64,000 nt of DNA from Stegostoma tigrinum (taxonomy: Eukaryota). The position numbers and the translations under genes were made by a program. Where the stretch lies: contig NC_081390.1 of the NCBI RefSeq assembly GCF_030684315.1, forward strand, positions 27,327,288-27,391,287, given 5' to 3'. The first letter of the stretch is position 1, and the number at the start of each line of letters is the position of its first letter. The notes under the pieces are model-generated. The model ran no database searches and was not told the DNA's origin. It was given only the letters and a program-made list of their open reading frames with translations. Below, piece by piece: positions 9,544 to 63,507 of this stretch.

Positions 9544-10548
9544 TGAGCTTCCGACGAAGCACTGGTGTTATGTCCCGCTTTCTATTTATCTGGTTAGGCT
9601 TCCTTGGGTTGGTGATGTCATTTCCTGTTCTTTTTCTCAGGGGATGGTAGATTGGCTCCAAGTCAATGTGTTTGTTGATGGTATTCCGGCTGGAATGCCA
9701 TGCTTCTAGGAATTCTCATGCATGTCTCTGTTTGGCTTGTCCTAGGATAGACGTGTTGTCCCAATCAAAGTGGTGTCCTTCCACATCTGTATGTAAAGAT
9801 ACGAGTGATAGTGGGTCATGTCGTTTTGTGTCTAGTTGATGTTCGTGTATCCTGGTGGCTAGCTTTCTGCCAATTTGTCCGATGTAGTGTTTGTCACAGT
9901 TCTTGCAAGGTATTTTGTAGATGACGTTCGTTTTATTTGTTGTGTGTATACGGTCTTTTAAGTTCATTAGCTGCTGTTTTAGTGTGTTGGTGAGTTTGTG
10001 GGCTACCCTGATGCCAAGAGGTCCGAGTAGTCTGGCAGTCATTTCGGAAATGTCTGCCAAACTACTTGGGCGTCTTGGCATCAGGGTAGCCCACAAACCC
10101 ACCAACACACTAAAACAGCATCTAATGAACTTAAATGACCCTATTCAGACAACAAACAAAACGAACGTCATCTACAAAATACCTTGCAAGAACTGTGACA
10201 AACACTACATCGGACAAATTGGCAGAAAGCTAGCCACCAGGATACACGAACATCAACTAGACACAAAACGACATGACCCACTATCACTCGTATCCTTACA
10301 TACAGATGTGGAAGGTCACCACTTTGATTGGGACAACACATCTATCCTAGGACAAGCCAAACAGAGACATGCACGAGAATTCCTAGAAGTATGGCATTCC
10401 AACCGGAATTCCATCAACAAACACATTGATTTGGAGCCAATCTACCATCCCCTGAGAAAAAGAACAGGAAATGACATCACCAACCCAAGGAAACCTAACC
10501 AGATAAATAGAAAACGGGACATAACACCAGCGCTTCGTCGGAAGCTCA

Positions 10549-10582
10549 CTGATGATGTTACCTAGAATGGTGACGAAACGTT
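10549..10582 (+). ncRNA. Minimal hammerhead ribozyme core in the PLE terminal repeat
   Basis: CTGATGA-tgttacc-tagaat-ggtgac-GAAAC-GTT: conserved boxes with a pairing stem II. Confidence 0.75.
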
Positions 10583-13274
10583 TGAAAACTAACCTTCCAG
10601 CTCAGCGAACAAACTCACATCCATAAAGTAAATTGTTGGCTACATTGTCTCCTAGCCAATGTAAAAATGATTGGAATATATGTCTTTATAGTTTTTAAGT
10701 CAGCAATTTCAAATGTGTTGAGCTACTCAAGTTAAAAGGATGGTGAAGGAGTGCAATCTCTGTGACAGAATAATATTGGTATTGATTGAACAGCCTAAAA
10801 GTTCACAATTTACAAAGGAACACACAGAAGCTACGGACAATGAAACATTTAAATGTTCTTTCATCATTACACAATAGTTGTTAAAAGCTTTACTTACTGG
10901 GAAATAATATGGATGCTCATTCCGAGACACAATTTCCGTTTACCCAGTCGGACCTACATGTAACTCCAGACCCACAGCAATTTGGTTGATTCTTAATTGT
11001 CCCTTTGGCAATAAATGCTGGCCTAGCCAGAGATAACCACATCCTGTGAATTGATTGAATAAAAGTACCAACGTATAACATGTCAATTATCAGCACGCAA
11101 TCCCAGTGTATTCAGTAGCTCATTGATAGCAGCTAACATGATTAAATTGCTTTCCCTAATCATTTTCTGATTTATTTCAAATATTTCTGGTGAGTTGGAA
11201 AAGCTCGTGTTGCTGTTCCTTTTAAGTTCAAGTCTCTGGCTCCATAGTTTGGGCTCAAAATGGATGAGCTATTGCACAATAAAGCCAGAAAACAAATTCA
11301 GGTTTTGTCAGATTGTGAACCAAATTCAGAATTTTCAGTGGAAAGCAGTGAAGGGGCGCACTAGATTTACATTTCATTTGGACAGGCATTTCTGTCTAGG
11401 TAGATTGTATGGCAAAGGTAATGCCTCTGGATTGCATGTGGTCGAGTATTAGGGATCTCTATTAAACTGTTGAAGGGACTGTTCTGAATTCTGAATGGAA
11501 GAGGTGGGAATTGTAATACATTGTTTTGCTCTAGCTGACCAATGACCTGAACAACGTCCTGTTTGGGAACGTGAAATCTACTAATTATAATTGCAATGAT
11601 CTCATTGTGTGTCAGTTCATGACTTGAGCTCTCGGGATAATTTTGACTTTGGCTTAAATAATGGTGTACATCTAGAAAGTGAAACTTTAAACATGCTTAC
11701 CATTTAGGAGCATGAATTATTATTAGTTTGCTACCATCATAAGCATTCAGGGAATTTAAGCAAGAAGAGCTCTTTTTCGTTCTCATTAAGAGCAGTAGTT
11801 ACCCACCTTGAGGTCCAATCTCCATTCACCTGATTGATAAAAGAAATTAATGATCCTAACAAGTTTAATAGTAGGGGCCGCGTGGTTTAAGCACCTGGGC
11901 ATTTGAATGTTTTTGCCGTGAGTTATTTATTGTTAATATTTAAAATATCTACTTCTGATCAATAGTACATGGGAAAGGAATATTTATCGATTTGACCTGT
12001 TGTACAATGGTGTTAGAAGAGGGAGGGTCAGTGGTTCTTATCATTAAGAAGGTATTTGCATTTGGAAAACTGAGCGAAGGTTTTAGTGGTGGACAGAATA
12101 AAAATCCAGGAACAGGAATAGGCCATTTAGCCCCTGAAAGCATCTCTACAAATCCAAAAATTATTGACACCGAGTTCTACCTCCAAAAGTAGGAAAATCT
12201 TCCCCAATATTACCATGCCATCTTTGAAGATGAAATATCATTGAGACAAAAAGTGAAGCTTGTTAGCTTCGTAAATACGCAATAATTAAAATCTTTAAGC
12301 CTAGCCTTAAAGAAGAACCAATGTCACATTTCACCAATAAACCATTCAGTGGTTTGATGTCTGTTTTCTGCATAAAACACAAATGTAATTTTTCCTGTTT
12401 TAGACTTGTTAATATAATTACAAGAAATTGAATTATCAATTGTGTTTAACCTTAAATTATTTTACAACTCCATTATTCTTGTTTATTTTCTGATTTCCTG
12501 TAATATCAGAAAATTTTATTATGATCTTCAATTTGGATTTTGACTTTCTTCTTTGAAAGTCATGACACCAGAACATTATCCTGGAAGATATTTTGAAAGC
12601 CTGGTTAGATTTCAGGATATCTCAAATATGGTTCAGTGTACTTCAGAGCATTTGGATGTTGTGCATAGCAGGAAGGATTTTCTTGAAATTCAGAATTTGG
12701 TTTGTGTGATTTTTTTGATTAATCTGCACAGAGACCAGAAAAAAAGAATTGTCAAGTAGAAACTCCAGTTCAATTTAATGCTTGTCACTTTAGCAATATA
12801 TTAATGAATTTGCTGCCATATAATTCACTCCCTTATACTTGAGGTTATGAAAATATAAATGAAGGTGTGACTTGAATAACTTGGTATTTCTTGGTTTCAT
12901 GTATAAAGCTCATAAAATGCAAGAAGTGTTTACTCCAGCAAGCCTAGCAGTATACTCGGGACAATAGTTTTGTTTTCTATATTTCCTCAGGATTTGGATG
13001 ATATTGGTAAAGCACTCCATCCTTAGTCACCCTGAGGAAAATAGGATTTAGTCACAGAATGTGGAACCTGGCATCATGAGAATTTTGTGCTTATCCAGAA
13101 ATAGCCATATTTCTAAAATTCATCTTTTCATATGTTGCGATGCTAGAATTTGAACTCGTAACCTCTGGAATGTCAGTTTATAGGCCCATATTCCAAATCA
13201 CCAATCTCAACAGTGGTATAACCTTTGAAAGTGCAACTTGGCCTATTCCAAATTGTTCACCTGGATTACTCAAT

Positions 13275-25463: not shown

Positions 25464-26399
25464 TTGTAGTTCGTCAATTGTATGCGTTTCAGATATTCAT
25501 TTAGGTGAAGTCAACTGGATGTCAAAGTGAAATGACTTGAAGGATTAGCACAGTGAGGAGATCACATTGTTAGTTTGGAGAAAGTAAATTATCCATTGAA
25601 CAGTAAATGTGAAGTTGCAAAATTCACTCCAATGCTGTTTATGTCTTAGGATTCCCCACAGCATCACTGATGAAAAGACTCAGTTGCTCACTCCTTCCCA
25701 AATGAAGCCCTTTTTTTAAACAAATATCTCACCTGAAATAACTTTACTTCCATGATGTAGAGATAAGTGACACAGTGAAATGCTGGATCATTCCACACTG
25801 AGAAGTTGGAGGTGGACAATTCATTGTTTATGCTCTGTTCTAACCAATAATACTGTCAATAACAAGTAGAAATAATGTCCCATGATCCAACTCCCAGGTA
25901 TTGTGAAATCATTAATGTATTTTGTAATTGCATGAGACCTATGCAGTATGCAATAATACATTGTTCAGGGTGTTTTCCACTAACACAATGCACAATACAC
26001 AATGAACCTCTGCACTTAGGGGATGAAAGACACTTTCTATGACACAGTAAAATAAACTATTACTGGTGTATTGGTGACCTCAATACAACAATAGGGGAAC
26101 TTAAAATACCAGATAGCATGTCACTCTGTAGGCAGTAGATACTGAAAATTACGTTGTACAGTCAGCAGGACACAGCAGATGATTTACCACTCTGCATGGC
26201 GCTATGTCGGGATAGAAATACAAACTCTTAATGAAACTTTTGCTTCCAAAATGGAAATTTTCCAGGTTAAAGGTCAGTTAATGTTTTTTGGTAACTGCTG
26301 TGTTTTCCAATGCTTTGATTAATAAGGTTCATCATTTGTGATGTCACTACCCATGTCCTTGTCTTTCTTTGTCTCTCCTTTCTCATTGGCTGATGCAAG

Positions 26400-26439
26400 G
26401 AGTTGAGGATGTTGTCCATTACTTCTATGATAAAGCGTG
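26400..26439 (+). CDS. Candidate 40-nt frame-shifting cassette exon (ELRMLSITSMIKR+G)
   Basis: Long pyrimidine tract 26356-26387, AG at 26398-99, donor GTG/gtatgg at 26440. Open in phase 0 and exits in phase 1. Three TGCATG motifs lie 32-64 nt downstream. No transcript evidence. Confidence 0.45.
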
Positions 26440-26471
26440 GTATGGTACAATGCAATCTAATCACTGCTGAC

Positions 26472-26503
26472 TGCATGCTGCATGTGTGGCATAACCCTGC
26501 ATG
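26472..26503 (+). promoter_or_regulatory. Cluster of three RBFOX-type TGCATG splicing elements
   Basis: TGCATG at 26472-77, 26479-84 and 26498-26503, directly downstream of a candidate donor. Confidence 0.5.
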
Positions 26504-27589
26504 GACAGACCTGTAGGCCATTTCAGAGCTGTTTGATGAAATGGCTGGCTTCAATCTGTGTGTATTTGCTGAAGTTCGCTGTGTGCTCCACCCTGCTACA
26601 GCATGTTCTACATCAGAGCATTCTATAATCCGGGCCTGCAGACATTATAAAAACATCACAACAGGGCACTTCAAATAGAAGCAATTGACATTGAAAATAA
26701 ATTATGTGCATCATATCCATTATCCCGCAGTGAATTAAGGCATTTGTTTAGCATCTGCTGGGTTGAGGAGTCTGAACCACACGTTTATGAAGATGTCTGA
26801 TTTCCTCAGCTGTTATCTTATCAGCCAGTTATGTATGTCCATTATATTCTCCTAAATGTGTACCAACCGTGAGACTAGATAATACCCAAAATTCCCAGCT
26901 CTGATTTTCTAATCCATTTGAGGTCTTCAACCCTTGTTTAGCAAGCAGTTATTGGCAGAGAAGCAGGATTAATGCACCAACATTGTTAACTATCTAGTTA
27001 CAGGTATTTCAAAAAGTGAATTTAAAAGATGTTCAGGGGCATTTCCGTCTTCACTGATCAGGTAATGACAAAGATCACTCAACATCATTGACGTGGCTTT
27101 TCAATTCTAGTAGAAAGGGAAGGTGATCACGGAGTTACTTCTGTAAGGTGCTTTTCTGCCTCTTATACCCTCCCAAATGGTGAAGGTGGAGACTGACCAA
27201 TCTGAGAAATCAGAATCAGCTGTTGGAATATTTTCCCCAGGGATCTGCAGGGTTACTGTAGAATGAAAGTGTTTATAACAAATTCGTAAAGTTTAATTTT
27301 TTAAATCCAAACCTTGCCTCTAGATGTTCATAAATGAAGTTATTTTGTAAGTGCCTTGATTGTGCGATATGAGGTTGCCTGAACTGGTTTGAAGTTACAT
27401 ACGACCCACCAGAACCCAATGTCTGCTTTAATGGGAGACAAGCTTACAGCTCGTTATTAGAGTTGCCATTATTCACAATTACTTGACCTCATCGAGCAGG
27501 GTAATAGGCCAGGAAAAAAAATGATGTAATATGTAAGCTTTTTTTAAAATGTTTTCATGTTTCAACCCAATGTTTTATTTGAAATGCAG

Positions 27590-38015: not shown

Positions 38016-39390
38016 AGAGATAACAAGAACTGCAGATGCTGGAGAATTTGAGATAACAAGGTGTAGAGCTGGATGAACACAGCAGGCCAAGCGGCATCAG
38101 AAGAGCAGGAAGGCTGACATTTTGGACCTAGACCCTTCTTCAGAAATAGGGGAGGAGAAGGGGGTTCTGAAATAAATAGGGAGAGAGGGGGAGGCGGATA
38201 GAAGATGGATAGAGGAGAAGATAGGTGGAGAGGAGACAGACAGGTCAACGAGGCGGGAATGGAGTCAGTAAAGGTGAGTGTAGGTGGAGGGGTAGGGAGG
38301 GGATAGGTCAGTCTAGGGAGGACGGACAGGTCAAGGGGACAGGATGAGGTTAGTAGGTTTGTGATGGGGGTTGGGCTTGAGGTGGGAGGTGGGGGTAGGT
38401 GGGAGGAAGGACAGGTTAGGGAGGCGGGGACGAGCTGGGCAGGTTTTGGGATGAGGGTGGGGAGGGAAAAATGTCCCCTTTCTGGAGGGACCATTCTCTC
38501 AGTGTCTGCCTTGTCTGCTCCACACTCCCCTCCAGCCCCACCACACCCAGCACTTTTCCCTGCAACCGCAGGAAGTGCTACGCTTGCCCCTACACCTCCC
38601 CCTTCCCCCCCCGCCAATCCCAGGCTCCAAGAAGAATTTCCACATCAAGCAGATGTTCATCTGCACATCTGCTAATGTGGTATGCTACATCCGCTGTTCC
38701 CGTCGTGGCCTCCTCTACATCGGGGAAACCAAGCGGAGGTTTGGGGACCGCCTTGCAGAACACCTACACTCGGTTTGCACTAAACAACTGCGCCTCCTAG
38801 TCGCGAGCCATTTCAACTCCCCCTCCCATTCCTCAGACGACATGTCCATCATTAGCCTCCTGCAGTGCCACTATGATGCCACCCGAAGGTTGCAGGAACA
38901 GCAACTCATATTCTGCTTGGGAACCCTGCAGCCCAATGGTATCAATGTGGATTTCACAAGCTTCAAAATCTCCCCTTCCCCCACTGTATCCCAAAACCAG
39001 CCCAGCTTGTCCCCACCACCCTAACCAGTCCTTCCTCCCACCTAAATCCTCCTCCCACCCCAAGGCCCACCCCAATCTCCGACCTACTAACCTCATCCCG
39101 CCCCCTTGACCTGTCTGTCCTCCCTGGACTGACCTATCCCCTCCCTAACTGCCCACCTACACTCACCTTTACTGGCTCCATCTGCCTCTCTTTGACCTGT
39201 CTGTCTCCTCTCCATCTATCTCCTCCTCTATCCATCTTCTATCTTCCTCCGCTTCTCTCCCTATTTATTTCAAAATCCCTTGCCCCTCCCCATTTCTGAA
39301 GAAGGGCCTTGGCCCGAAACGTCAGCCTTCCTGCTCCTCTGATGCTGGCTGGCCTGCTGTGTTCATCCAGCTCTACACCTTGTTATCTCT
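38016..39390. mobile_element. Penelope-like element (Neptune-type), truncated, with inverted terminal repeats
   Basis: GIY-YIG ORF 38575..39024 (VVCYIRCSRRGLLYIGETKRRFGDRLAEH), preceded by the Cys linker PCNRRKCYAC. 38016-~38465 is an inverted copy of the 3' part. TSD TTAAAT(T/G)TTGTC at 38004-15 and 39391-402. Confidence 0.9.
39296..39323 (+). ncRNA. Minimal hammerhead ribozyme core
   Basis: CTGAAGA-agggc-cttg-gccc-GAAAC-GTC. Confidence 0.75.
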
Positions 39391-39949
39391 TTAAATGTTG
39401 TCCTTGTGTACATGTAACCTCTAGTCGTGAGTAGTGATTTGCTCTGTCCCTTTTTGTCATTATGTTTATAATTTCCCTCATCAATTCCATTTTTTACATT
39501 TTAGCCACAACTTCCTAAATTTGGCCCTTTCCCCCTACTGTTTAGTTTAAAACCCACTCTGCTTTTCCAGTTCATTGTTTTGCAGCAACACGGTCCCATA
39601 CAGTTCAGGTGCAGCCATCCCACAAGCACAGATCCCACTTTCCCTGGTATTGGTACTGATGCCCCACGCTTTGGAACACACTTCACCTACACCAGTCTTT
39701 CCACCAAGTATTCATTGGTCTAACCTTGTTTACCTTATGCTAATTTGCATGTGGCTCAGGCAATAATCCAGAGATTGTTATGTTTGATGTTCAACTTCTT
39801 AATTTGGTGCCTATGTCTCCATATTATTCATGGAGAATGTTTTTCCTAGTTTTGCCTATGTCATTGGTTCCTCCATGGAACCACGCAAACTGTGTCCCCC
39901 CCCACCTCTGCAATGCAACTTCTTCTCCAGCCCAGAGCAGATATCCTTA

Positions 39950-40047
39950 AAAACTAAAACAATGGTAGGTGCTGTAAATCAGAGACAAAAATAGAAATTG
40001 CTGGAAAAGCTCCGCAGTGTATGTAGAGAGAAATCAGAGCTAACGTT
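39950..40047 (-). mobile_element. Short PLE-terminal-repeat-derived element (partial)
   Basis: gctgtaaatcagagacaaaaatagaaattgctggaaaagctc...aaatcagagctaacgtt. Confidence 0.65.
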
Positions 40048-40133
40048 CCTCGCTGCAGACATGTTGGGACTGAATCAGTTCTGTCCAGTAGGACTTTTCT
40101 TTACTCGCAGAGGCCTATTATATCAAATACTTA

Positions 40134-40453
40134 GGGCAGCACAGCAGCCTCACAGCACTTGGCCCCCGGGTTCATTCCCACCCTCAGGTGACTGTCTGTG
40201 TGGAGTTTGCACATTCTCCCTGTGTCTGCCTGGGTTTCCTTCGGGTGCTCCAGGTTCCTCCCACAGTCCAAAGATGTGCAGGTTAGGCAGATTGGCCATG
40301 CTAAATGTCTCAGAGTCCAGGGATGTACAGGCTCGGGGGGACATGTGTGGTTATGGGGTAGAGGGCTAGGTCTGGGTGGGATGCTCTTGAGAGGATCAAT
40401 GCAGACTCACTGGGGCCAAATAGTCTGCTTCCACTTTGTAAAGATTCTATGAT
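40134..40453 (+). mobile_element. tRNA-derived SINE, HE1/V-SINE type
   Basis: cctcacagc...gggttc...tgtggagtttgcacattctccc...ctcccacagtccaaagatgtgcaggttagg, ending attctatgatt. Confidence 0.85.
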
Positions 40454-40631
40454 TCACCTGCTACAGACTACATAAGAAAGGCTGATGCAGTGTTATATCT
40501 TGTACTAGGTAAAATGGCCAATGCAAATGGCAGTGAAAATGGGAACTGCAGATGCTGGAGAATCCAAGATAACACGGTGTGGAGCTGGATGAACACAGCA
40601 GGCCAAGCAGCATCTCAGGAGCACATAAGCT

Positions 40632-40659
40632 GACGTTTCGGGCCTCGACCCTTCATCAG
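40632..40659 (-). ncRNA. Minimal hammerhead ribozyme core
   Basis: Reverse complement CTGATGA-agggt-cgag-gccc-GAAAC-GTC. Confidence 0.75.
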
Positions 40660-41049
40660 AGAGGGGGATGGGGATAGGGAACTGGAATAAATAGGGAGAG
40701 AGGGGGAGGCGGACCGAAGATGGAGAGAAAAGAAGATAGGTGGAGAGGAGAGTATAGGTGGGAAGGTAGAGAGGGGACAGGTCAGTCCAGGGAAGATGGA
40801 CAGGTCAAGGAGGCAGGATGAGGTAGTAGGTAGGAAATGGAGGTGCGGCTTGAGGTGGGAGGAAGGGATGGGCGAGAGGAAGAACAGGTTAGGGAGGTGG
40901 AGACAGGTTGGGCTGGTTTTGTGATGCAGTGGGGGGAGGGGAAGAACTGGGCTGGTGTTGGGATGCAGTGGGGCAGGGGGAGATTTTGAAGCTTGTGAAG
41001 TCCACATTGATACCATTGGACTGCAGGGTTCCCAAGCGGAATATGAGTT

Positions 41050-42349
41050 AGAACATAGAACATAGAACATAGAACAGTACAGCACAGAACAGGCCCTTCA
41101 GCCCACAATGTTGTGCCGACCATTGATCCTCATGGATGCACCCCCAAATTTCTGTGACCATATGCATGTCCAGCAGTCTCTTAAATGACCCCAATGACCT
41201 TGCTTCCACAACTGCTGCTGGCAACGCATTCCATGCTCTCACAACTCTCTGCGTAAAGAACCTGCCTCTGACATCCCCTCTATACTTTCCACCAACCAGC
41301 TTAAAACTATGACCCCTCGTGCTAGCCATTTCTGCCCTGGGAAATAGTCTCTGGCTATCGACTCTATCTATGCCTCTCATTATCTTGTATACCTCAATTA
41401 GGTCCCCTCTCCTCCTCCTTTTCTCCAATGAAAAGAGACCGAGCTCAGTCAACCTCTCTTCATAAGATAAGCCCTCCAGTCCAGGCAGCATCCTGGTAAA
41501 CCTCCTCTGAACCCTCTCCAAAGCATCCACATCTTTCCTATAATAGGGCGCCCAGAACTGGACGCAGTATTCCAAGTGCGGTCTAACCAAAGTTTTATAG
41601 AGCTGCAACAAGATCTCACGACTCTTAAACTCAATCCCCCTGTTAATGAAAGCCAAAACACCATATGCTTTCTTAACAACCCTGTCCACTTGGGTGGCCA
41701 TTTTAAGGGATCTATGTATCTGCACACCAAGATCCCTCTGTTCCTCCACGCTGCCAAGAATCCTATCCTTAATTCTGTACTCAGCTTTCAAATTCGACCT
41801 TCCAAAATGCATCACCTCGCATTTATCCAGGTTGAACTCCATCTGCCACCTCTCAGCCCATCTCTGCATCCTGTCAATGTCCCGCTGCAGCCTACAACAG
41901 CCCTCTACACTGTCAACGACACCTCCGACCTTTGTGTCGTCTGCAAACTTGCTGACCCATCCTTCAATTCCCTCGTCCAAGTCATTAATAAAAATTACAA
42001 ACAGTAGAGGCCCAAGGACAGAGCCCTGTGGAACCCCACTCACCACTGACTTCCAGGCAGAATATTTTCCTTCTACTACCACTCGCTGTCTTCTGTTGGC
42101 CAGCCAATTCTGTATCCAAGCAGCTAAGTTCCCCTGTATCCCATTCCTCCTGACCTTCTGAATGAGCCTTCCATGGGGAACCTTATCAAATGCCTTACTG
42201 AAGTCCATATACACCACATCCACAGCTTGACCCTCATCAACCTTACTAGTCACATCCTCAAAAAACTCGATAAGGTTTGTAAGGCATGACCTACCCCTCA
42301 CAAAGCCGTGTTGACTGTATTTGATCAAGCCATGCTCTTCCAGATGGTC
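41050..42349 (-). mobile_element. Young 5'-truncated CR1 LINE (RT C-terminal half) nested in the PLE endonuclease
   Basis: Uninterrupted 426-aa frame with [41 protein letters not shown]. (ATGTTCT)n tail. Flanked by AGTT at 41046-49 and 42350-53, where the PLE sequence resumes. Confidence 0.95.
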
Positions 42350-44568
42350 AGTTGCTGTTCCTGCAACCTTCGGGTGGCATCATTGTGGCACTGCAGGAGG
42401 CCCATGATGGACATGTTGTCTAAGGAATGGGAGGGGGAATTAAAATGGTTCGCGACTGGGAGGTGTAGGTATTTATTGCGAACCGAGCGGAGGTGTTCTG
42501 CAAAGCGGTCCCCAAGCCTCCGCCTGGTTTCCCCAATGTAGAGGAACACACACTGGGTACAGTGGATACAGTATACCACATTGGCAGATTTGCAGGTGAA
42601 CATCTGCTTCATGTGGAAAGCCATCTTGGGGCCTGGGATAGGGGTGAGGGAGGAGGTGTGGGGACAAGTGTAGCATTTCCTGCGGTTGCAGGGGAAGGTG
42701 CCGGGTGTGGTGGGGTTGGAGGGCAGTGTGGAGCGAACAAGGGAGTCATGGAGAGAGTGGTCTCTCCGGAAAGCAGAAAGGGGTGGGGATGGAAAAATGT
42801 CTTGGGTGGTGGGGTCGGATTGTAGATGGCGGAAGTGTTGGAGGATGATGCGTTATATCCGGAGGTTGGTGGGGTGGTGTGTGAGAACGAGGGGGATCCT
42901 CTGGGGGCGGTTGTGGCAGGGGTGGGGTGTGAGGGATGTGTTGCAGGAGATGCGGTCCAGGGTGTTCTCGACCACTGCGGGGGGAAAGTTGCGGTCCTTG
43001 AAGAACGTGGACATCTGGGATGTGCGGGAGTGGAATGCCTCATCCTGGGAGCAGATGCGGTGGAGGCAGAGGAATTGGGAATAGGGGATGGAATTTTTGC
43101 AGGAAGTTGGGTGGGAGGAGGTGTGTTCTAGGTAGCTGTGGGAGTTGGTGGGTTTGAAATGGACATCAGTTTCTAGCTGGTTACCTGAGATGGAGACTGA
43201 GAGGTCTAGGAAGGTGAGGGATGTGATGGAGATGGCCCAGGTGAACTGAAGGTTGGGGTGGAATGTGTTGGTGAAATGGATGAACTGTTCGAGCTCCTCT
43301 GGGGAGCAAGAGGCGGCGCCGATACAGTCATCACTGTAATGAAGGAAGAGGTGGGGTTTGGGGCCTGTGTAGGTGCGGAAGAGGGACTGTTCCACGTAGC
43401 CTACAAAGAGGCAGGCATAGCTGGGGCCCATGCGGGTACCCATGGCCACTCCCTTTGTCTGTAGGAAGTGGGAGGAATCGAAAGACAAGTTGTTAAGGGT
43501 GAGGACGAGTTCAGCTAGGCGGATGAGGGTGTCGCTGGAGGGGCATTGGTCGGGTCTGCGGGACAGGAAGAAGTGGAAGGCCTTGAGGCCATCTGCATGA
43601 GGAATACAGGTGTATAGGGACTGGACGTGAAAATAGTGGTGTTGGGGGCCAGGGAATTGGAAGTTCTGGAGGAGGTGGAGTGCGTGGGTGGTGTCACAGA
43701 CGTAGGTAGGGAGTTCCTGGACCAAAGGGGAGAAAATGGAGTCCAGATAGGTGGAGATGAGTTCGGTGGGGCAGGAACAGGCTGAGACAATGTGTCGATC
43801 AGGGCAGGCAGGTTTGTGGATTTTGGAAAGGAGATAGAAACGGGCCGTGCGGGGTTGGGGAACAGTGAGGTTGGAGGCTGTGGGTGGGAGGTCCCCTGAG
43901 GTGGTGAGGCCATGGATGGTGTTGGAGATGATGGTTTGGTGCTCGGGGGTGGGGTCGTGATCAAGGGGGTGGTAGGTGTCGGAGAGTTGGCGTTTGGCCT
44001 TGGCGATGTAGAGGTCAGTGCGCCATACTACCACTGCGCCTCCCTTGTCTGTGGGTTTGATGGTGAGGTTGGGGTTGGAGTGGAGGGCTGCCCATTCTGC
44101 AGGGGAGAGGTTGGAGTGGGTGAGAGGGGTGGAGAGGTTGAGGCGGTTGATGTCTCAATGGCAATTGGAGATGAAGAGTTCGAGGGAGTGTAGGAGGCCT
44201 AGGGGTGGTGTCTAGGAAGAGGACTTGTGTTGGAGGTGGGTGAAGGGGTCAGTGGAGGGAGGGTAGGCTCCCGGTTAGAGAAGTAAGCGTGGAGGCGAAG
44301 GCAGCGGAAAAACTGCTCGATGTGCAAACGTGACTGGTATTCATTGATGTGTGGGTGGAGAGGTCAAACGTGAGCCCCTTGCTTAGGACTGACCGTTCGT
44401 CCTCGGTCATTGGGAGGTCTGGGGGGCTGGTGAAGGTGCGGACTGACCTATCTCCTCCCTATGTCCCCACCTATACTCTCCTCTCCACCTAACTTCTTTT
44501 CTCTCCATCTTCAGTCTACCTCCCCCTCTCTTCCTATTTATTCCAGAACACACTCCCCATGCCCCTCT

Positions 44569-44596
44569 CTGATGAAGGGTCTAGGCCTGAAACGCC
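44569..44596 (+). ncRNA. Hammerhead core with mutated cleavage triplet
   Basis: CTGATGA-agggt-ctag-gcct-GAAAC-GCC; GTC is changed to GCC. Confidence 0.55.
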
Positions 44597-45027
44597 AGCT
44601 TTTGTGCTCCTGAGATGCTGCTTGGCCTGCTGAATTCATCCAGCTGCACACTTTGTTACAATGCAAATGGCATCCTCCCGTAAGATGTGCAGGAGTATTT
44701 ATTCTGAATTTCGCATACTTGAGGATGAGGAGGGGAGGGGTTAGAGCTGGGAGAAGAGTGTCTCTGGGGAGAAAAAGTGTCCAGCAGCCATGTTATCAGA
44801 ATATTTCCAGTGTGACTGATGGATTTAGCGTTTCTGCTGGTTTGGTTCTTCCTATCTGAGAGGTAGAGACAATGCTTCTGTCAAATTTTGTCCCAGAGCC
44901 AGACTGGAATTCACTAATTTAGGAGATTTGCTGTGATCAATAGCAATCCTTTTTTTGTACAAAGAATTAGTTCAGTTTTGTCTGTGTAAGTGGTCTATAA
45001 GTTGATTAGTTGCTTCCTAATAATGTT

Positions 45028-45630
45028 TAGAACATAGAACAGAACAGTAGAGCACAGAACAGGCCCTTCAGCCCACGATGTTGACCATTGATCCTAATGT
45101 ATGCACCCTCAAATTTCTGTGACCATATGCATGTCCAGCAGTCTCTTAAATGTCCCCAATGACCTTGCTTCCACAACTGCTGCTGGCAACGCATTCCATG
45201 CTCTCACAACTCTCTGTGTAAAGAACCCACCTCTGACATCCCCTCTATACTTTGCTCCAACCAGCTTAAAACTATGACCCCCTTGTGCTAGCCTTTTCTG
45301 CCCTGGGAAATAGCCTCTGGCTATCAACTCTATCTATGCCTCTCATTATCTTGTATACCTCAATTAGGTCCCCTCTCCTCCTCCTTTTCTCCAATGAAAA
45401 AAGTCCGAGCTCAGTCAACCTCTCTTCATAAGATAAGCCCTCCAGTCCAGGCAGCATCCTGGTAAACCTCCTCTGAACCCTGTCCAAAGCATCAACATCT
45501 TTCCTATAATAGGGCGCCCAGAACTGGACGCAGTATTCCAAGTGCGGTCTAACCAAAGTTTTATAGAGCTGCAACAAGATCTCACGACTCTTAAACTCAA
45601 TCCCCCTGCTAATGAAAGCCAAAACACCAT
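45028..45630 (-). mobile_element. 5'-truncated CR1 LINE, same subfamily as 41050-42349
   Basis: Nearly the same sequence as 41060-41665; ORFs 45272..45622 and 45109..45327 are separated by a frameshift. Confidence 0.92.
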
Positions 45631-46350
45631 GATATTTTCAATCCACCTTTTCCCTGGTGAAGTGCGGATGAGAAAGCTGATATTAAAATTGTTCAGACTT
45701 ACCCTTTCATTATTCAGTAACAGCTTAGTGACCTTAGTGATGTCTAAAGTGTAGCTGTAAAGCACACCTTACTCTCTTTGGTAGACACAGCGAATAATCC
45801 ATGTTACCCCATACTCCCATTCCACTCTGGGCGAGCCACTGTTTGGTTTGTAACAATAAAATAAAGAACACCATGCATTATTGAGTCACAAATAAGTAAA
45901 TGCTCATAGACCTGAGCTGCCTCGACATATTTGCCTTAGCAATTTAAGCCCTCATTAACAGAAAAGCGGAAAACGATGTAAAGAGAGCTATTAATGATGA
46001 AACCCTACATAAAAACTGAAAATTGCTGGAAATATACATCAAACCTGCCAGGTGGCCCCTGAAGAGAGAAAATAGGTTAACGTTGCAGCTTTAGCCTTTT
46101 GTGAGCTTTGAGCGAGCCTTCAACCATAAGTATTAACCTCTCTCTTCTCTTGACAGTTGCTGTCAAACCGGCTATGTATTTCCAACATGATATTGGAAGC
46201 ACACAGTGTAGTGTGGCAAATGCTATACAGCAGAAAATGCCTTTGACCGGAGTGTTTATTCGATAAATTCAAGTCGTTTCTGGTCACATCATGGAGTATT
46301 TTAATATATATATAATGCTCAAAACTTTTTCTAATTCATGTACGTACGTG

Positions 46351-50159: not shown

Positions 50160-50254
50160 CCTCCAGTACTACAGCCTTCCAACCACATATGCAGCTCCAA
50201 AGAACACGACACTGGAAAAGTAGTAAAACCAATCCGTATCGAGGACCCCAGTAG
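50160..50254 (+). CDS. CCSER2: Alternative reading frame of the same terminal exon (short-isoform C-terminus)
   Basis: Entered in phase 1, it reads (x)SSTTAFQPHMQLQRTRHWKSSKTNPYRGPQ*, with TAG at 50252-54. The recalled human short isoform ends TSSTTAFQQPSQTHRSHPGKTNKATTYRGPQ*, the same length. Confidence 0.75.
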
Positions 50255-51089
50255 ATGTACAGAGAATGTGTCTTGTGACTGCCAAACCAACCAAAATGCA
50301 AAAGCTGCTGTTTCCTCGGAGATATCTTCAGATAAACTCAGCTTCCGTCAACCCATCCCACAAAAGTCAGGGGACTCTTCCCAAGAACAGCCAGGGTGTA
50401 AGAAGGTCAGACAAAATTCAAATTTTGCACCTAAGGAACATGGACACAGTCAGGTTTCAGTGCAGCAGACCAGTTTACGGAGCACTTCAGTATTTACAGA
50501 AGAATCCAGAAATAAAGACTTTCGGCCCAGGTTTGCTTTTAGACAGTGTGTACCTTCCAAAGATCCAAGTGTCAAATCCAAGACTCGGGCTTCAACAGTG
50601 AAGTCTTCTCAACTTTCCAAATCCAGAAAGAGTGCTGGCTCAGTCTCTCACCTAGGGATTTGCATTGGAGAACGTCCAGTTGATCTATCAATGAGAGATC
50701 AAAAGGAATCAGAACGTCAAGTCCCCCAACCAGTACATATCAACCTTACAACACCTAGCGACGAACAGCAAAAGAGAAAATCTAAACTTCCACCATCCCT
50801 ATCTTCACCACTTCTGACCATTAAAACAACAGTGTTTCCAACGAATCCTCAGCCACTTGTCAGGGAGAGTCAGCATGGCGAACCCAACAAACACAGGGAT
50901 GAATCCCATTTTGAGATTTTGCCATTCACCAAGCTGCAGAGAAAGCAGCCGCTCGGAGAAGACCATCCACGGAAGCTTCAGAGCTACGATTCCCAACCTG
51001 AGAAATCTTCAACCTCGTTCCGGCAATCCCGCCTTCCTCAACCAAAGATGCATGCATCCGGCCCCTCAAACAGCAGCTCCCAGAGTTGA
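50160..51089 (+). CDS. CCSER2: Terminal coding exon of coiled-coil serine-rich protein 2, long-isoform frame (309 aa + stop)
   Basis: Acceptor ttttctttcaacAG at 50158-59, branch-like ctaat near 50122, phase 0. The exon starts PPVLQPSNHICSSKEHDTGKVVKPIRIEDPS, versus recalled human PQVLQPSSSLPRPTDHTQGKLIKPQRIEARS. It ends SRLPQPKMH..., versus recalled human SRLPKPKIH. It is the only long non-transposon ORF in the window (track 49983..51089). Confidence 0.85.
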   Translation, partial: PPVLQPSNHICSSKEHDTGKVVKPIRIEDPSRCTENVSCDCQTNQNAKAAVSSEISSDKLSFRQPIPQKSGDSSQEQPGCKKVRQNSNFAPKEHGHSQVSVQQTSLRSTSVFTEESRNKDFRPRFAFRQCVPSKDPSVKSKTRASTVKSSQLSKSRKSAGSVSHLGICIGERPVDLSMRDQKESERQVPQPVHINLTTPSDEQQKRKSKLPPSLSSPLLTIKTTVFPTNPQPLVRESQHGEPNKHRDESHFEILPFTKLQRKQPLGEDHPRKLQSYDSQPEKSSTSFRQSRLPQPKMHASGPSNSSSQS

Positions 51090-60765: not shown

Positions 60766-62008
60766 TAACCAGCCAGCTCGACAAGCAAGCCAACAACCTC
60801 ATGACTGGGCAGTAATTGGCTGGGTTGAATTTGTCCTGCTTTATATGTACAGGGTATACCTCAGCAATTTTCCACACTGTTGGGCAGATGCCAGTATTGC
60901 AACTGTGCTGAGACAGCTTGGCTAGGGGAATGACAGGGTCTGAAACACAAACCTTCAGTCTGATTGCTGCGATGTTGTCAGGCCCCACAATCTTTGCAAT
61001 ATCCAGTGACTTTAGCTATTTATTGATATCACATGGGGTGAATCAAATTGGCTAAAGACGAGAATCTGTGATGCTGGGGGGTTCTGGAAAAGACTGGGAT
61101 GAATCATCTGCATGGCACTCATGGCCGAAGATGTTTGTAAATAAGACGATAAGATGCAGGAGCAAATGTAGTTCCCTTCCAGGTTAAAAATCTGCTTATC
61201 TCAGCCTTGAGATATTTAGTGACCCAGCTTTGAAAGTCCTCTGCAGTAAAGGATCCCACAGATTGACTATCCTCTGAATGTCAAAAACATCCTCCTTCTC
61301 TCTTTCTTAGGTGGGCCACCCCTTAATCTGAGATCCTGACCTCTTGTCCTAGAAATGTCTAGAAGGGAAAATAGCTTTTCTTCATTTGCCCTTTCACGCC
61401 CTGCATGAATCTTAATAATGTTTTCCCTCTTGTTGGTTCCTTCATCAAAGGCTGCAGCAGCATTTGAGCAGCTGTGTCCTTTAGGATCCAACCACCTTGG
61501 TCAGTACTGCTACCGCAGAGCCACTCTTGTTGGTGAACATTGAAATCTTCCACCCAGGGTACATTTTGTGCCTTTGCCACCCTCAGTTCCTCCTCCATAC
61601 GTTGCACTGTTTCAGCAGCCAAGAGAGGACGGTATGTGGTAAATCAGCAGGAGATTTCCTTGCCCATCTTTAACCTGAAGCCATGAGACTTCATGGAGAT
61701 CAGAATAAATAAGGCAGCTCCCTCCCTGCTGTGCTGCCCCTTCTGCTGGGTCAGTCCTGCCTGTGGAACTTGTCTGTATGGTATGACTCTGTGAATGTGA
61801 CTGTGCCAAGCTGTTGCTTTGTTAGCCTGTGGGTCAGTTCTCCCACTGTTGGCACTAGACCCCAGATAGTAGGGGGGCTTTGCTGTTCAACATGCCTGTG
61901 TTTGCCATTGTTGTTTCATTGATTTGAGTCCACACCGACCCTCTGGAGAGCGTCCTGTCCAGACCCACCCCCCACCCTACACATATAACCCTACATTTAC
62001 CGTGGTTA

Positions 62009-63498
62009 ATGGCATGGGATTCAGGGAAATCTGGCTGTCTGGATACAGAATTGGTTGTCCAATAGAAGACAGTGTGGTAGTAGATGGAAAATATTCAGCC
62101 TGGAGTTCAGTGACCAGTGGTGTTCCGCAGGGATCTGTTCTGGGAGCTCTGCTCTTTGTGATCTTTATAAATGACTTGGATGAGGAAGTGGAAGGGTGGG
62201 TTAGTAGTTTGCTGATGACACGAAGGTTGTTGGAGTGTGGACAGTGTGAAGGGCTGTTGTAGGTTGCAACAGGACATTGACAGGATGCAGAGTTGGGCAA
62301 AAAAGTGGCAGATGGAATTCAACCTGAAAAAGTCAAAGTGATTCATTTGTGAAGGTCAAATTTGATTGCAGAATACAGGGTTAATGGCAGGATTCTTGGC
62401 AGTGTGGAGGAACAGAGGGATCTGGAGATCCACGTTCATAGATCCATCAAAGTCGCTACCCAAGTTGATAGGGTTGTATGGGCGGCATGCTGGCACAGTA
62501 GTTAGCACTGCAGCCTCACAGCACCAGGGACCCAGGTTCGATTCTAGCCTCGGTTGTCTGTGTGGAGTTTGCACATTTTCCCCGTGCCTGTGTGTTTCCT
62601 CCGGGTGCTCCGGTTTCCTCCCACAGTCCAACGATGTGCAGGTTAGGTGGCTTGGCCATGCTAAATTGCCAGTAGTGTTCAGGGATGCGTAGATTAGGTA
62701 GGTTATAGGGGGATGGGTCTGGATGGGATGCACTGAGGCTCGGTGGGGACTTGTTGGGCCAAAGGGCCTGTTTCCACACTAGGGATTTTATTTTATCTGT
62801 AAAGAAGGTATATAGTGTTTTGGAGATGATAGGAACTGGAGATGCTGGAGCATCCAAGATAACAAGGTGTGGAGCTGGATGAACACAGCAGGCCAAGCAG
62901 CATCTTAGGCTTTTATTGGCAGGGGAATTGCGTTTAAGAGCAGTGAGGTTATGCCGTAGCTTTATAAAACCCTGGTTAGACCACACTTGGAATACTGTGT
63001 TCAGTTCTGGTCACCTCATTACAGGAAAGATGTGGAAGCTTTACAGAGGGTGCAGAGGTGATTTACCAGGATGCTGCCTGAACTGGAGGGCAGGTCTTAC
63101 GAGGAAAGGTTGAGGGAGCTTGGGCTTTTCTCATTGGAGCAAAGAAGGATGAGAGGTGACATGTTAGAGATTTACAAGATGATGAGAGGCATAGACAGAC
63201 TGGATAGCCAGAGACTTTTTCCCAGGGCTGAAATAACTATTATGAGGGGGCATAATTTTAAGATGATTGGAGGAAAGTGTAGGGGAGATTTCAGAGGTGG
63301 GTTTTTTACGCAGAGATTGGTGGATGCATGGAATGCACTGCTGGCAGTGGTAGTGAAGTCAGCTACATTAGGGACATTTAAGCAACTCTTTGATAGGCAC
63401 AGGGATGTGGGGTATACAGGGTAGTTTGATAATAAAGTAGGATAATAGGTCGGCACATCATTTTGGGCCGAAGGGCCTGTACTGTTCAATGCTCAATG
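62009..63498 (+). mobile_element. CR1 LINE 3' part, frameshifted, interrupted by a SINE and a PLE-derived piece (about 62825-62905)
   Basis: [32 protein letters not shown]; MLPELEGRSYEERLRELGLFSLE; 3' ggtcggcac...gggccgaagggcctgtactg. Confidence 0.9.
62480..62795 (+). mobile_element. tRNA-derived SINE, HE1/V-SINE type, nested in CR1
   Basis: gggcggcatgctggcacagtagttagcactgc (A box), ggttcgattc (B box), then the V-domain. Confidence 0.88.
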
Positions 63499-63507
63499 TT
63501 AATCCAC

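Follow-up and report, generated by a model that had tools for sequence, protein, structure and literature searches.

A 40-nt cassette exon of zebra shark CCSER2 that opens the third reading frame of a triple-coding last exon and precedes a candidate RBFOX enhancer

The closest described counterparts of the exon reported here are 40-nt cassette exons of human and zebrafish CCSER2. The human exon (gene also called FAM190B; hg19 chr10:86267049-86267089; hg38 10:84507294-84507333; VastDB HsaEX0024310), placed after an 85-nt cassette, is one of the 145 brain-specific micro-exons that PMC4317164 lists in its Suppl. File 2. The neural inclusion values given in a zebrafish study are dPSI +53.9 for ccser2a, +81.3 for ccser2b (counterparts DreEX0019867/DreEX0019869) and +46.1 for the human ortholog, in a neural call that leaves muscle and heart out of some comparisons (PMC12626424). 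The human 85-nt and 40-nt exons are both also listed as RBPMS2-regulated in iPSC cardiomyocytes (PMC9770155), and inclusion of the 40-nt exon in heart or muscle therefore stays compatible with the record. The exon that follows has been described as triple coding and conserved across jawed vertebrates (Tress et al., bioRxiv 10.64898/2026.05.28.727796), with all three frames under selection and peptides for each; as in the shark, three C-termini come from one exon, and the available text of that survey gives the isoform functions as unknown and names no regulator of the 40-nt exon. CCSER2 does not appear in the main text of a preprint on dual coding (10.64898/2026.02.24.707805).

We report that the 40-nt segment at 26,400-26,439 (forward strand) of the window, the 64-kb stretch of DNA that was analysed, is a real optional exon (exon B) of zebra shark CCSER2, a microtubule-tip gene, and, as judged from its sequence, the ortholog of the vertebrate CCSER2 40-nt cassette. 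Our main reading, to which we give a probability of about 0.8, is that exon B is the second of two tandem frame-shifting cassettes, opening the third frame of the last exon when it follows the first (cassette A), and that sharks probably include it in neural tissue, where RBFOX bound to three downstream UGCAUG would likely promote its splicing. Exon B itself, the neural pattern of its human and zebrafish orthologs and the triple-coding last exon are already known: exon B is annotated in zebra shark RefSeq, where CCSER2 isoform X2 (XP_059496288.1, P0050) is an annotation of this very locus and shows no difference from it.

The host gene is identified as CCSER2 from sequence matches: the open reading frame at about 50,160-51,089 matches shark, ray and chimaera CCSER2 (6 matches among 1516 candidates), and a Pfam scan of this last-exon frame returned no family. 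The last exon is the sole exon of the long isoform inside the window, and the others lie upstream on the contig (C49 of genome G000). Among these, the exon shared by all forms (27279734-27279832) ends in phase 0, 47 kb before the window, and the 85-nt cassette A, flanked by AG and GT, is located at 27319868-27319952, 7.3 kb before it. Exon B sits within CCSER2, downstream of the 85-nt cassette and upstream of the last exon, and the introns measure about 40.0 kb (shared exon to A), 33.7 kb (A to B) and 23.7 kb (B to last exon). The initial annotation had found no homolog of the frame-shifting human-type cassette here; that cassette is present, and a tblastn search of the window with the cassette-A peptide gave no credible match because cassette A sits before the window. 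Orthologs of cassette A (P0128; HsaEX0024309) include a shortened cassette A in a bat model. A 49-nt human form of cassette A, also of 3n+1 length, is spliced in less often in tumours of the breast and prostate than in healthy tissue; this is the only form among the matches listed for that source (2 of 4; 12 of 19 files searched; PMC7935315).

A recount of the splice signals bore out the sequence features first described for exon B. The acceptor TGCAAG (26,394-26,399) carries a TGC at -6 and is preceded by a polypyrimidine tract (26,358-26,387; 27 of 30 pyrimidines), and the nearest upstream AG lies at -75, with no AG between it and the exon B acceptor. The donor is GTATGG (26,440-26,445), followed by three TGCATG at 26,472, 26,479 and 26,498 (a candidate RBFOX enhancer spanning 26,472-26,503, at +33, +40 and +59 from the donor), all on the forward strand. 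A second GT lies 5 nt further on (window 26,440-26,446) and is used in a Scyliorhinus canicula model (P0020), in which a 45-nt exon leads back to the short frame. Exon B has two open frames, one starting ELRML and the other reading VEDVVHYFYDKA; after the 85-nt cassette A the exon reads R/VEDVVHYFYDKA/C and encodes an RVExxVxYFxDK peptide.

Five splice forms were translated in silico, and their C-termini were compared with the zebra shark RefSeq proteins. When both cassettes are skipped, the last exon (50,160-51,089, forward strand) is read in a long frame of 309 codons with its stop at 51,087, and the C-terminus matches P0055 (1092 aa) exactly. Cassette A alone gives an exact C-terminal match to P0057 (842 aa, ending YRGPQ; short-frame stop at 50,252-50,254). 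A plus B (85+40 nt) bring the last exon into the third frame (RVEDVVHYFYDKA, then 20 more codons; stop at 50,221-50,223), and the product is identical to P0050, of 845 aa, over its C-terminal 74 residues. Each cassette adds one base modulo three, and the number spliced in (zero, one or two) decides in which of its three frames the last exon is read; the two tandem 3n+1 cassettes act as a counter choosing among three C-termini, in which no cassette yields the 1092-aa form with two C-terminal SxIP motifs, A alone the 842-aa form with the YRGPQ end, and A+B the 845-aa form with the conserved tail. The exon-B-alone form and the 45-nt variant match none of the zebra shark RefSeq proteins in this comparison.

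These results bear directly on the model first proposed for this locus, in which exon B is joined on its own to the shared exon, uses the ELRML frame and takes the place of an absent cassette by leading to the short YRGPQ frame. The ELRML frame is indeed open and would reach YRGPQ, but we consider this model highly improbable: cassette A is present and already yields the short frame in assembled contigs (X11 and X1), the exon-B-alone form occurs in none of the 191 anchored CCSER2 proteins described below, and the amino acid conservation of exon B falls in the VEDVVHYFYDKA frame and not in ELRML. YRGPQ comes from cassette A alone and exon B gives the third frame, being added after cassette A and not replacing it. 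The initial annotation misread both the frame and the substitute role of exon B because its partner cassette lies outside the window.

Evidence from reads comes from sequence runs without a tissue or library label; a run search listed 14 entries, none recorded as RNA and all of guessed or unknown kind. In the four runs aligned on the last exon, every contig begins at the acceptor with a loose end (of which 30 letters are shown per contig). In the contig from run X13 (1 of 4 runs), which has 600 nt upstream of the junction, the 30 letters shown are the last 30 bases of exon B, joined to the last exon (26,439 to 50,160). Contigs X11 and X1 (a related species) carry the end of cassette A at the last-exon acceptor, and contig X14 runs straight from the shared exon into the last exon. 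Joins that span introns of 24-98 kb show that the runs contain spliced RNA. Of the two exon B junctions that had been predicted, the one at 26,439/26,440 is thus seen (X13), whereas the one at 26,399/26,400 is not directly seen in reads, and the pairing of A before B at that 5′ junction comes from protein models. None of the four runs X10-X13 showed cover of 25,900-26,900, a blank that is false at least for X13, which carries exon B letters.

The cross-species conservation expected of the exon was found well beyond cartilaginous fishes. We fetched 213 proteins and counted the 191 with the shared exon's anchor motif. The A+B tail occurs in 61 of them, the short tail in 37, the long tail in 77, a 45-nt variant in one and other ends (classified by eye) in 15; some of the protein searches were seeded with the A+B tail, so these proportions are not a sample. 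The A+B tail is found in chimaera, catsharks, carpet sharks, rays, skates, bichir, tarpon, bonefish and a cyprinid, and also in frogs, lizards, a turtle, a crocodilian, birds and mammals up to gibbon; the exon B peptide of the shark is orthologous to those of primates and ray-finned fishes. An alignment of 58 A+B proteins has 10 invariant positions among the 19 from 812 to 830. On these comparisons exon B is ancient. Five proteins with other odd terminal-exon models were compared as well, and none mapped to the window.

All three forms share residues 1-783, including the N-terminal SxIP and two helices (672-699 and 716-753) that precede the split at residue 783; helix 672-699 aligns with the Ndel1-binding region, which lies near residues 657-687 of the human protein (bioRxiv 10.1101/2024.06.13.598865). 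Two C-terminal motifs of the SxIP type, SKLP (50,781-50,792) and SRLP (51,027-51,038, both on the forward strand), belong to the long frame only. SxIP motifs drive tip tracking (PMC10486078; bioRxiv 10.1101/2024.06.13.598865), and the A+B protein, which would keep the Ndel1-binding helix and the N-terminal SxIP and would lack the C-terminal SxIP, would track microtubule tips less well than the long form because these C-terminal motifs are missing. CCSER2, an Ndel1-binding protein, acts as a gate on dynein at the cell edge (bioRxiv 10.1101/2024.06.13.598865); it takes part in neuronal development, and each of two mouse isoforms reaches plus ends (PMC9974511). The available parts of these two sources describe no test of the A+B isoform.

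The tail encoded by A+B is predicted to be disordered: an AlphaFold model built with the 58 sequences has a mean pLDDT of 42.9, with values below 50 for residues 774-845. Such disorder, together with the lack of a C-terminal SxIP in nearly all proteins with the A+B tail, as in those with the A-only tail, would suit a reading in which the sole job of exon B is to shut off the long, SxIP-rich frame, with no function for the tail sequence as such. We regard this as improbable, however: the long frame is already lost with cassette A alone, and exon B adds nothing to that; the exon B peptide, which overlaps no other frame in use, is nonetheless almost unchanged from chimaera to mammals; and the triple-coding survey reports selection on the third frame (bioRxiv 10.64898/2026.05.28.727796). 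A tail that is disordered yet nearly invariant would instead be a short linear binding motif.

For the shark, neural inclusion is argued by analogy. Human and zebrafish 40-nt exons come with tissue data, whereas the shark exon B is known here from sequence and unlabelled contigs; exon B is likely neural in sharks, and A+B splicing likely gives neurons a short protein tail of their own. The early proposal of a conserved and frame-shifting cassette ahead of the last exon holds, as does its neural character in the human and zebrafish orthologs, and the motif cluster downstream of it suits RBFOX.

The best candidate for the activator of this neural inclusion, and in our view a probable one, is RBFOX acting through the cluster downstream of exon B. 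The forward strand of the whole 64-kb window contains 34 TGCATG, and the only place where three fall within 65 nt is the stretch after exon B; when 34 motifs were placed at random, such a cluster arose anywhere in the 64 kb in 1.5% of 20,000 trials (p about 0.015), and the minus strand of the window, used as a control, has no cluster of three TGCATG within 65 nt. UGCAUG is thus present above chance in the proximal downstream intron, where RBFOX would bind the three copies and promote inclusion of exon B. Downstream RBFOX binding is tied to inclusion and is enriched around brain-specific micro-exons as a class (PMC4317164). Similar to these micro-exons, exon B is at most 51 nt long, has its human ortholog on the list and is followed by UGCAUG; it differs from them in being frame-shifting and not frame-preserving, and RBFOX binding was shown there, in the part of the source available, for the class. 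CCSER2 is absent from ten supplement files of an Rbfox1/LASR study (PMC11874969) and from one supplement file of a neocortex Rbfox study (PMC11419088), whatever the coverage of these files, and literature listings for RBFOX with CCSER2 or Fam190b yielded no paper on regulation of the 40-nt exon.

A skate RefSeq model (Rhinoraja X4, P0037) closes with a terminal exon of 9 residues. The window encodes the first five of these only at 26,461-26,475, 22 nt after exon B; 0.3 such matches are expected per window and about 0.0006 near the exon, in a post hoc calculation. The match may, as a weak indication from sequence, mark conserved intron sequence; skate would then differ from the shark at the first two TGCATG.

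With the same exon and frame, neural inclusion could also depend mainly on something besides RBFOX, such as SRRM3/4 acting at the UGC or release of the long pyrimidine tract from PTBP1, with the TGCATG cluster then in an accessory or lineage-specific role. A UGC close to the 3′ splice site is the motif rule for SRRM3/4 targets, and the TGC at -6 of exon B follows it; the CU-rich tract (27 of 30 pyrimidines) also speaks for such a reading. The possible loss of two TGCATG in a skate and the lack of a CCSER2 row in the two RBFOX supplement sets point the same way, and small SRRM3/4 effects go in the expected direction: in the available data zebrafish ccser2a has a dPSI of -6.41 in srrm3/4 mutants, and the human 40-nt exon changes by +11.05 on overexpression in human cells (PMC12626424). 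These effects fall short of the cut-off of -15 used in that paper, however, and at 40 nt the exon lies outside the SRRM3/4 microexon class (3-27 nt, with a drop of at least 15 PSI on srrm3/4 loss); the SRRM3/4 hint in the initial annotation was right about the UGC at the acceptor, while dependence of the orthologs is weak. With the sole TGCATG cluster in 64 kb located 33-64 nt past the donor, we hold a mainly non-RBFOX mechanism to be rather unlikely, and keep RBFOX-promoted inclusion as the preferred reading.

CAC clusters are the motif of RBPMS, and six CAC are found in the 100 nt after cassette A (positions 1577-1676 of L011, on the same contig), compared with a window mean of 1.4 per 100 nt; no TGCATG lies nearby. 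In both zebrafish and human, RBPMS2 regulation is listed for the orthologous 85-nt exon (PMC9770155).

Tentatively, and at somewhat less than even odds, we suggest that the two tandem 3n+1 cassettes came under different regulators (CAC-rich, RBPMS-type after A; RBFOX after B) and have formed a three-state switch since the first jawed vertebrates, which in neurons would give the Ndel1/dynein regulator CCSER2 a near-invariant motif, VxYFxDKxCLxYYS, that redirects it from EB1-led tip tracking towards a new partner or site. What the shark locus adds, a clear candidate enhancer together with a conserved motif of 20 residues, eases the design of minigene and pull-down tests.

Two further features of the window were observed. 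The long frame contains PVDLS (50,676-50,690), which we take to be a CtBP-like motif; it is not kept in the other aligned sharks and is probably there by chance. Fragments of LINE-like reverse-transcriptase and other retroelement reading frames, recognised by eye in the translations, lie in introns and downstream (38,300-45,800, 61,800-63,500 and 9,700-10,600).
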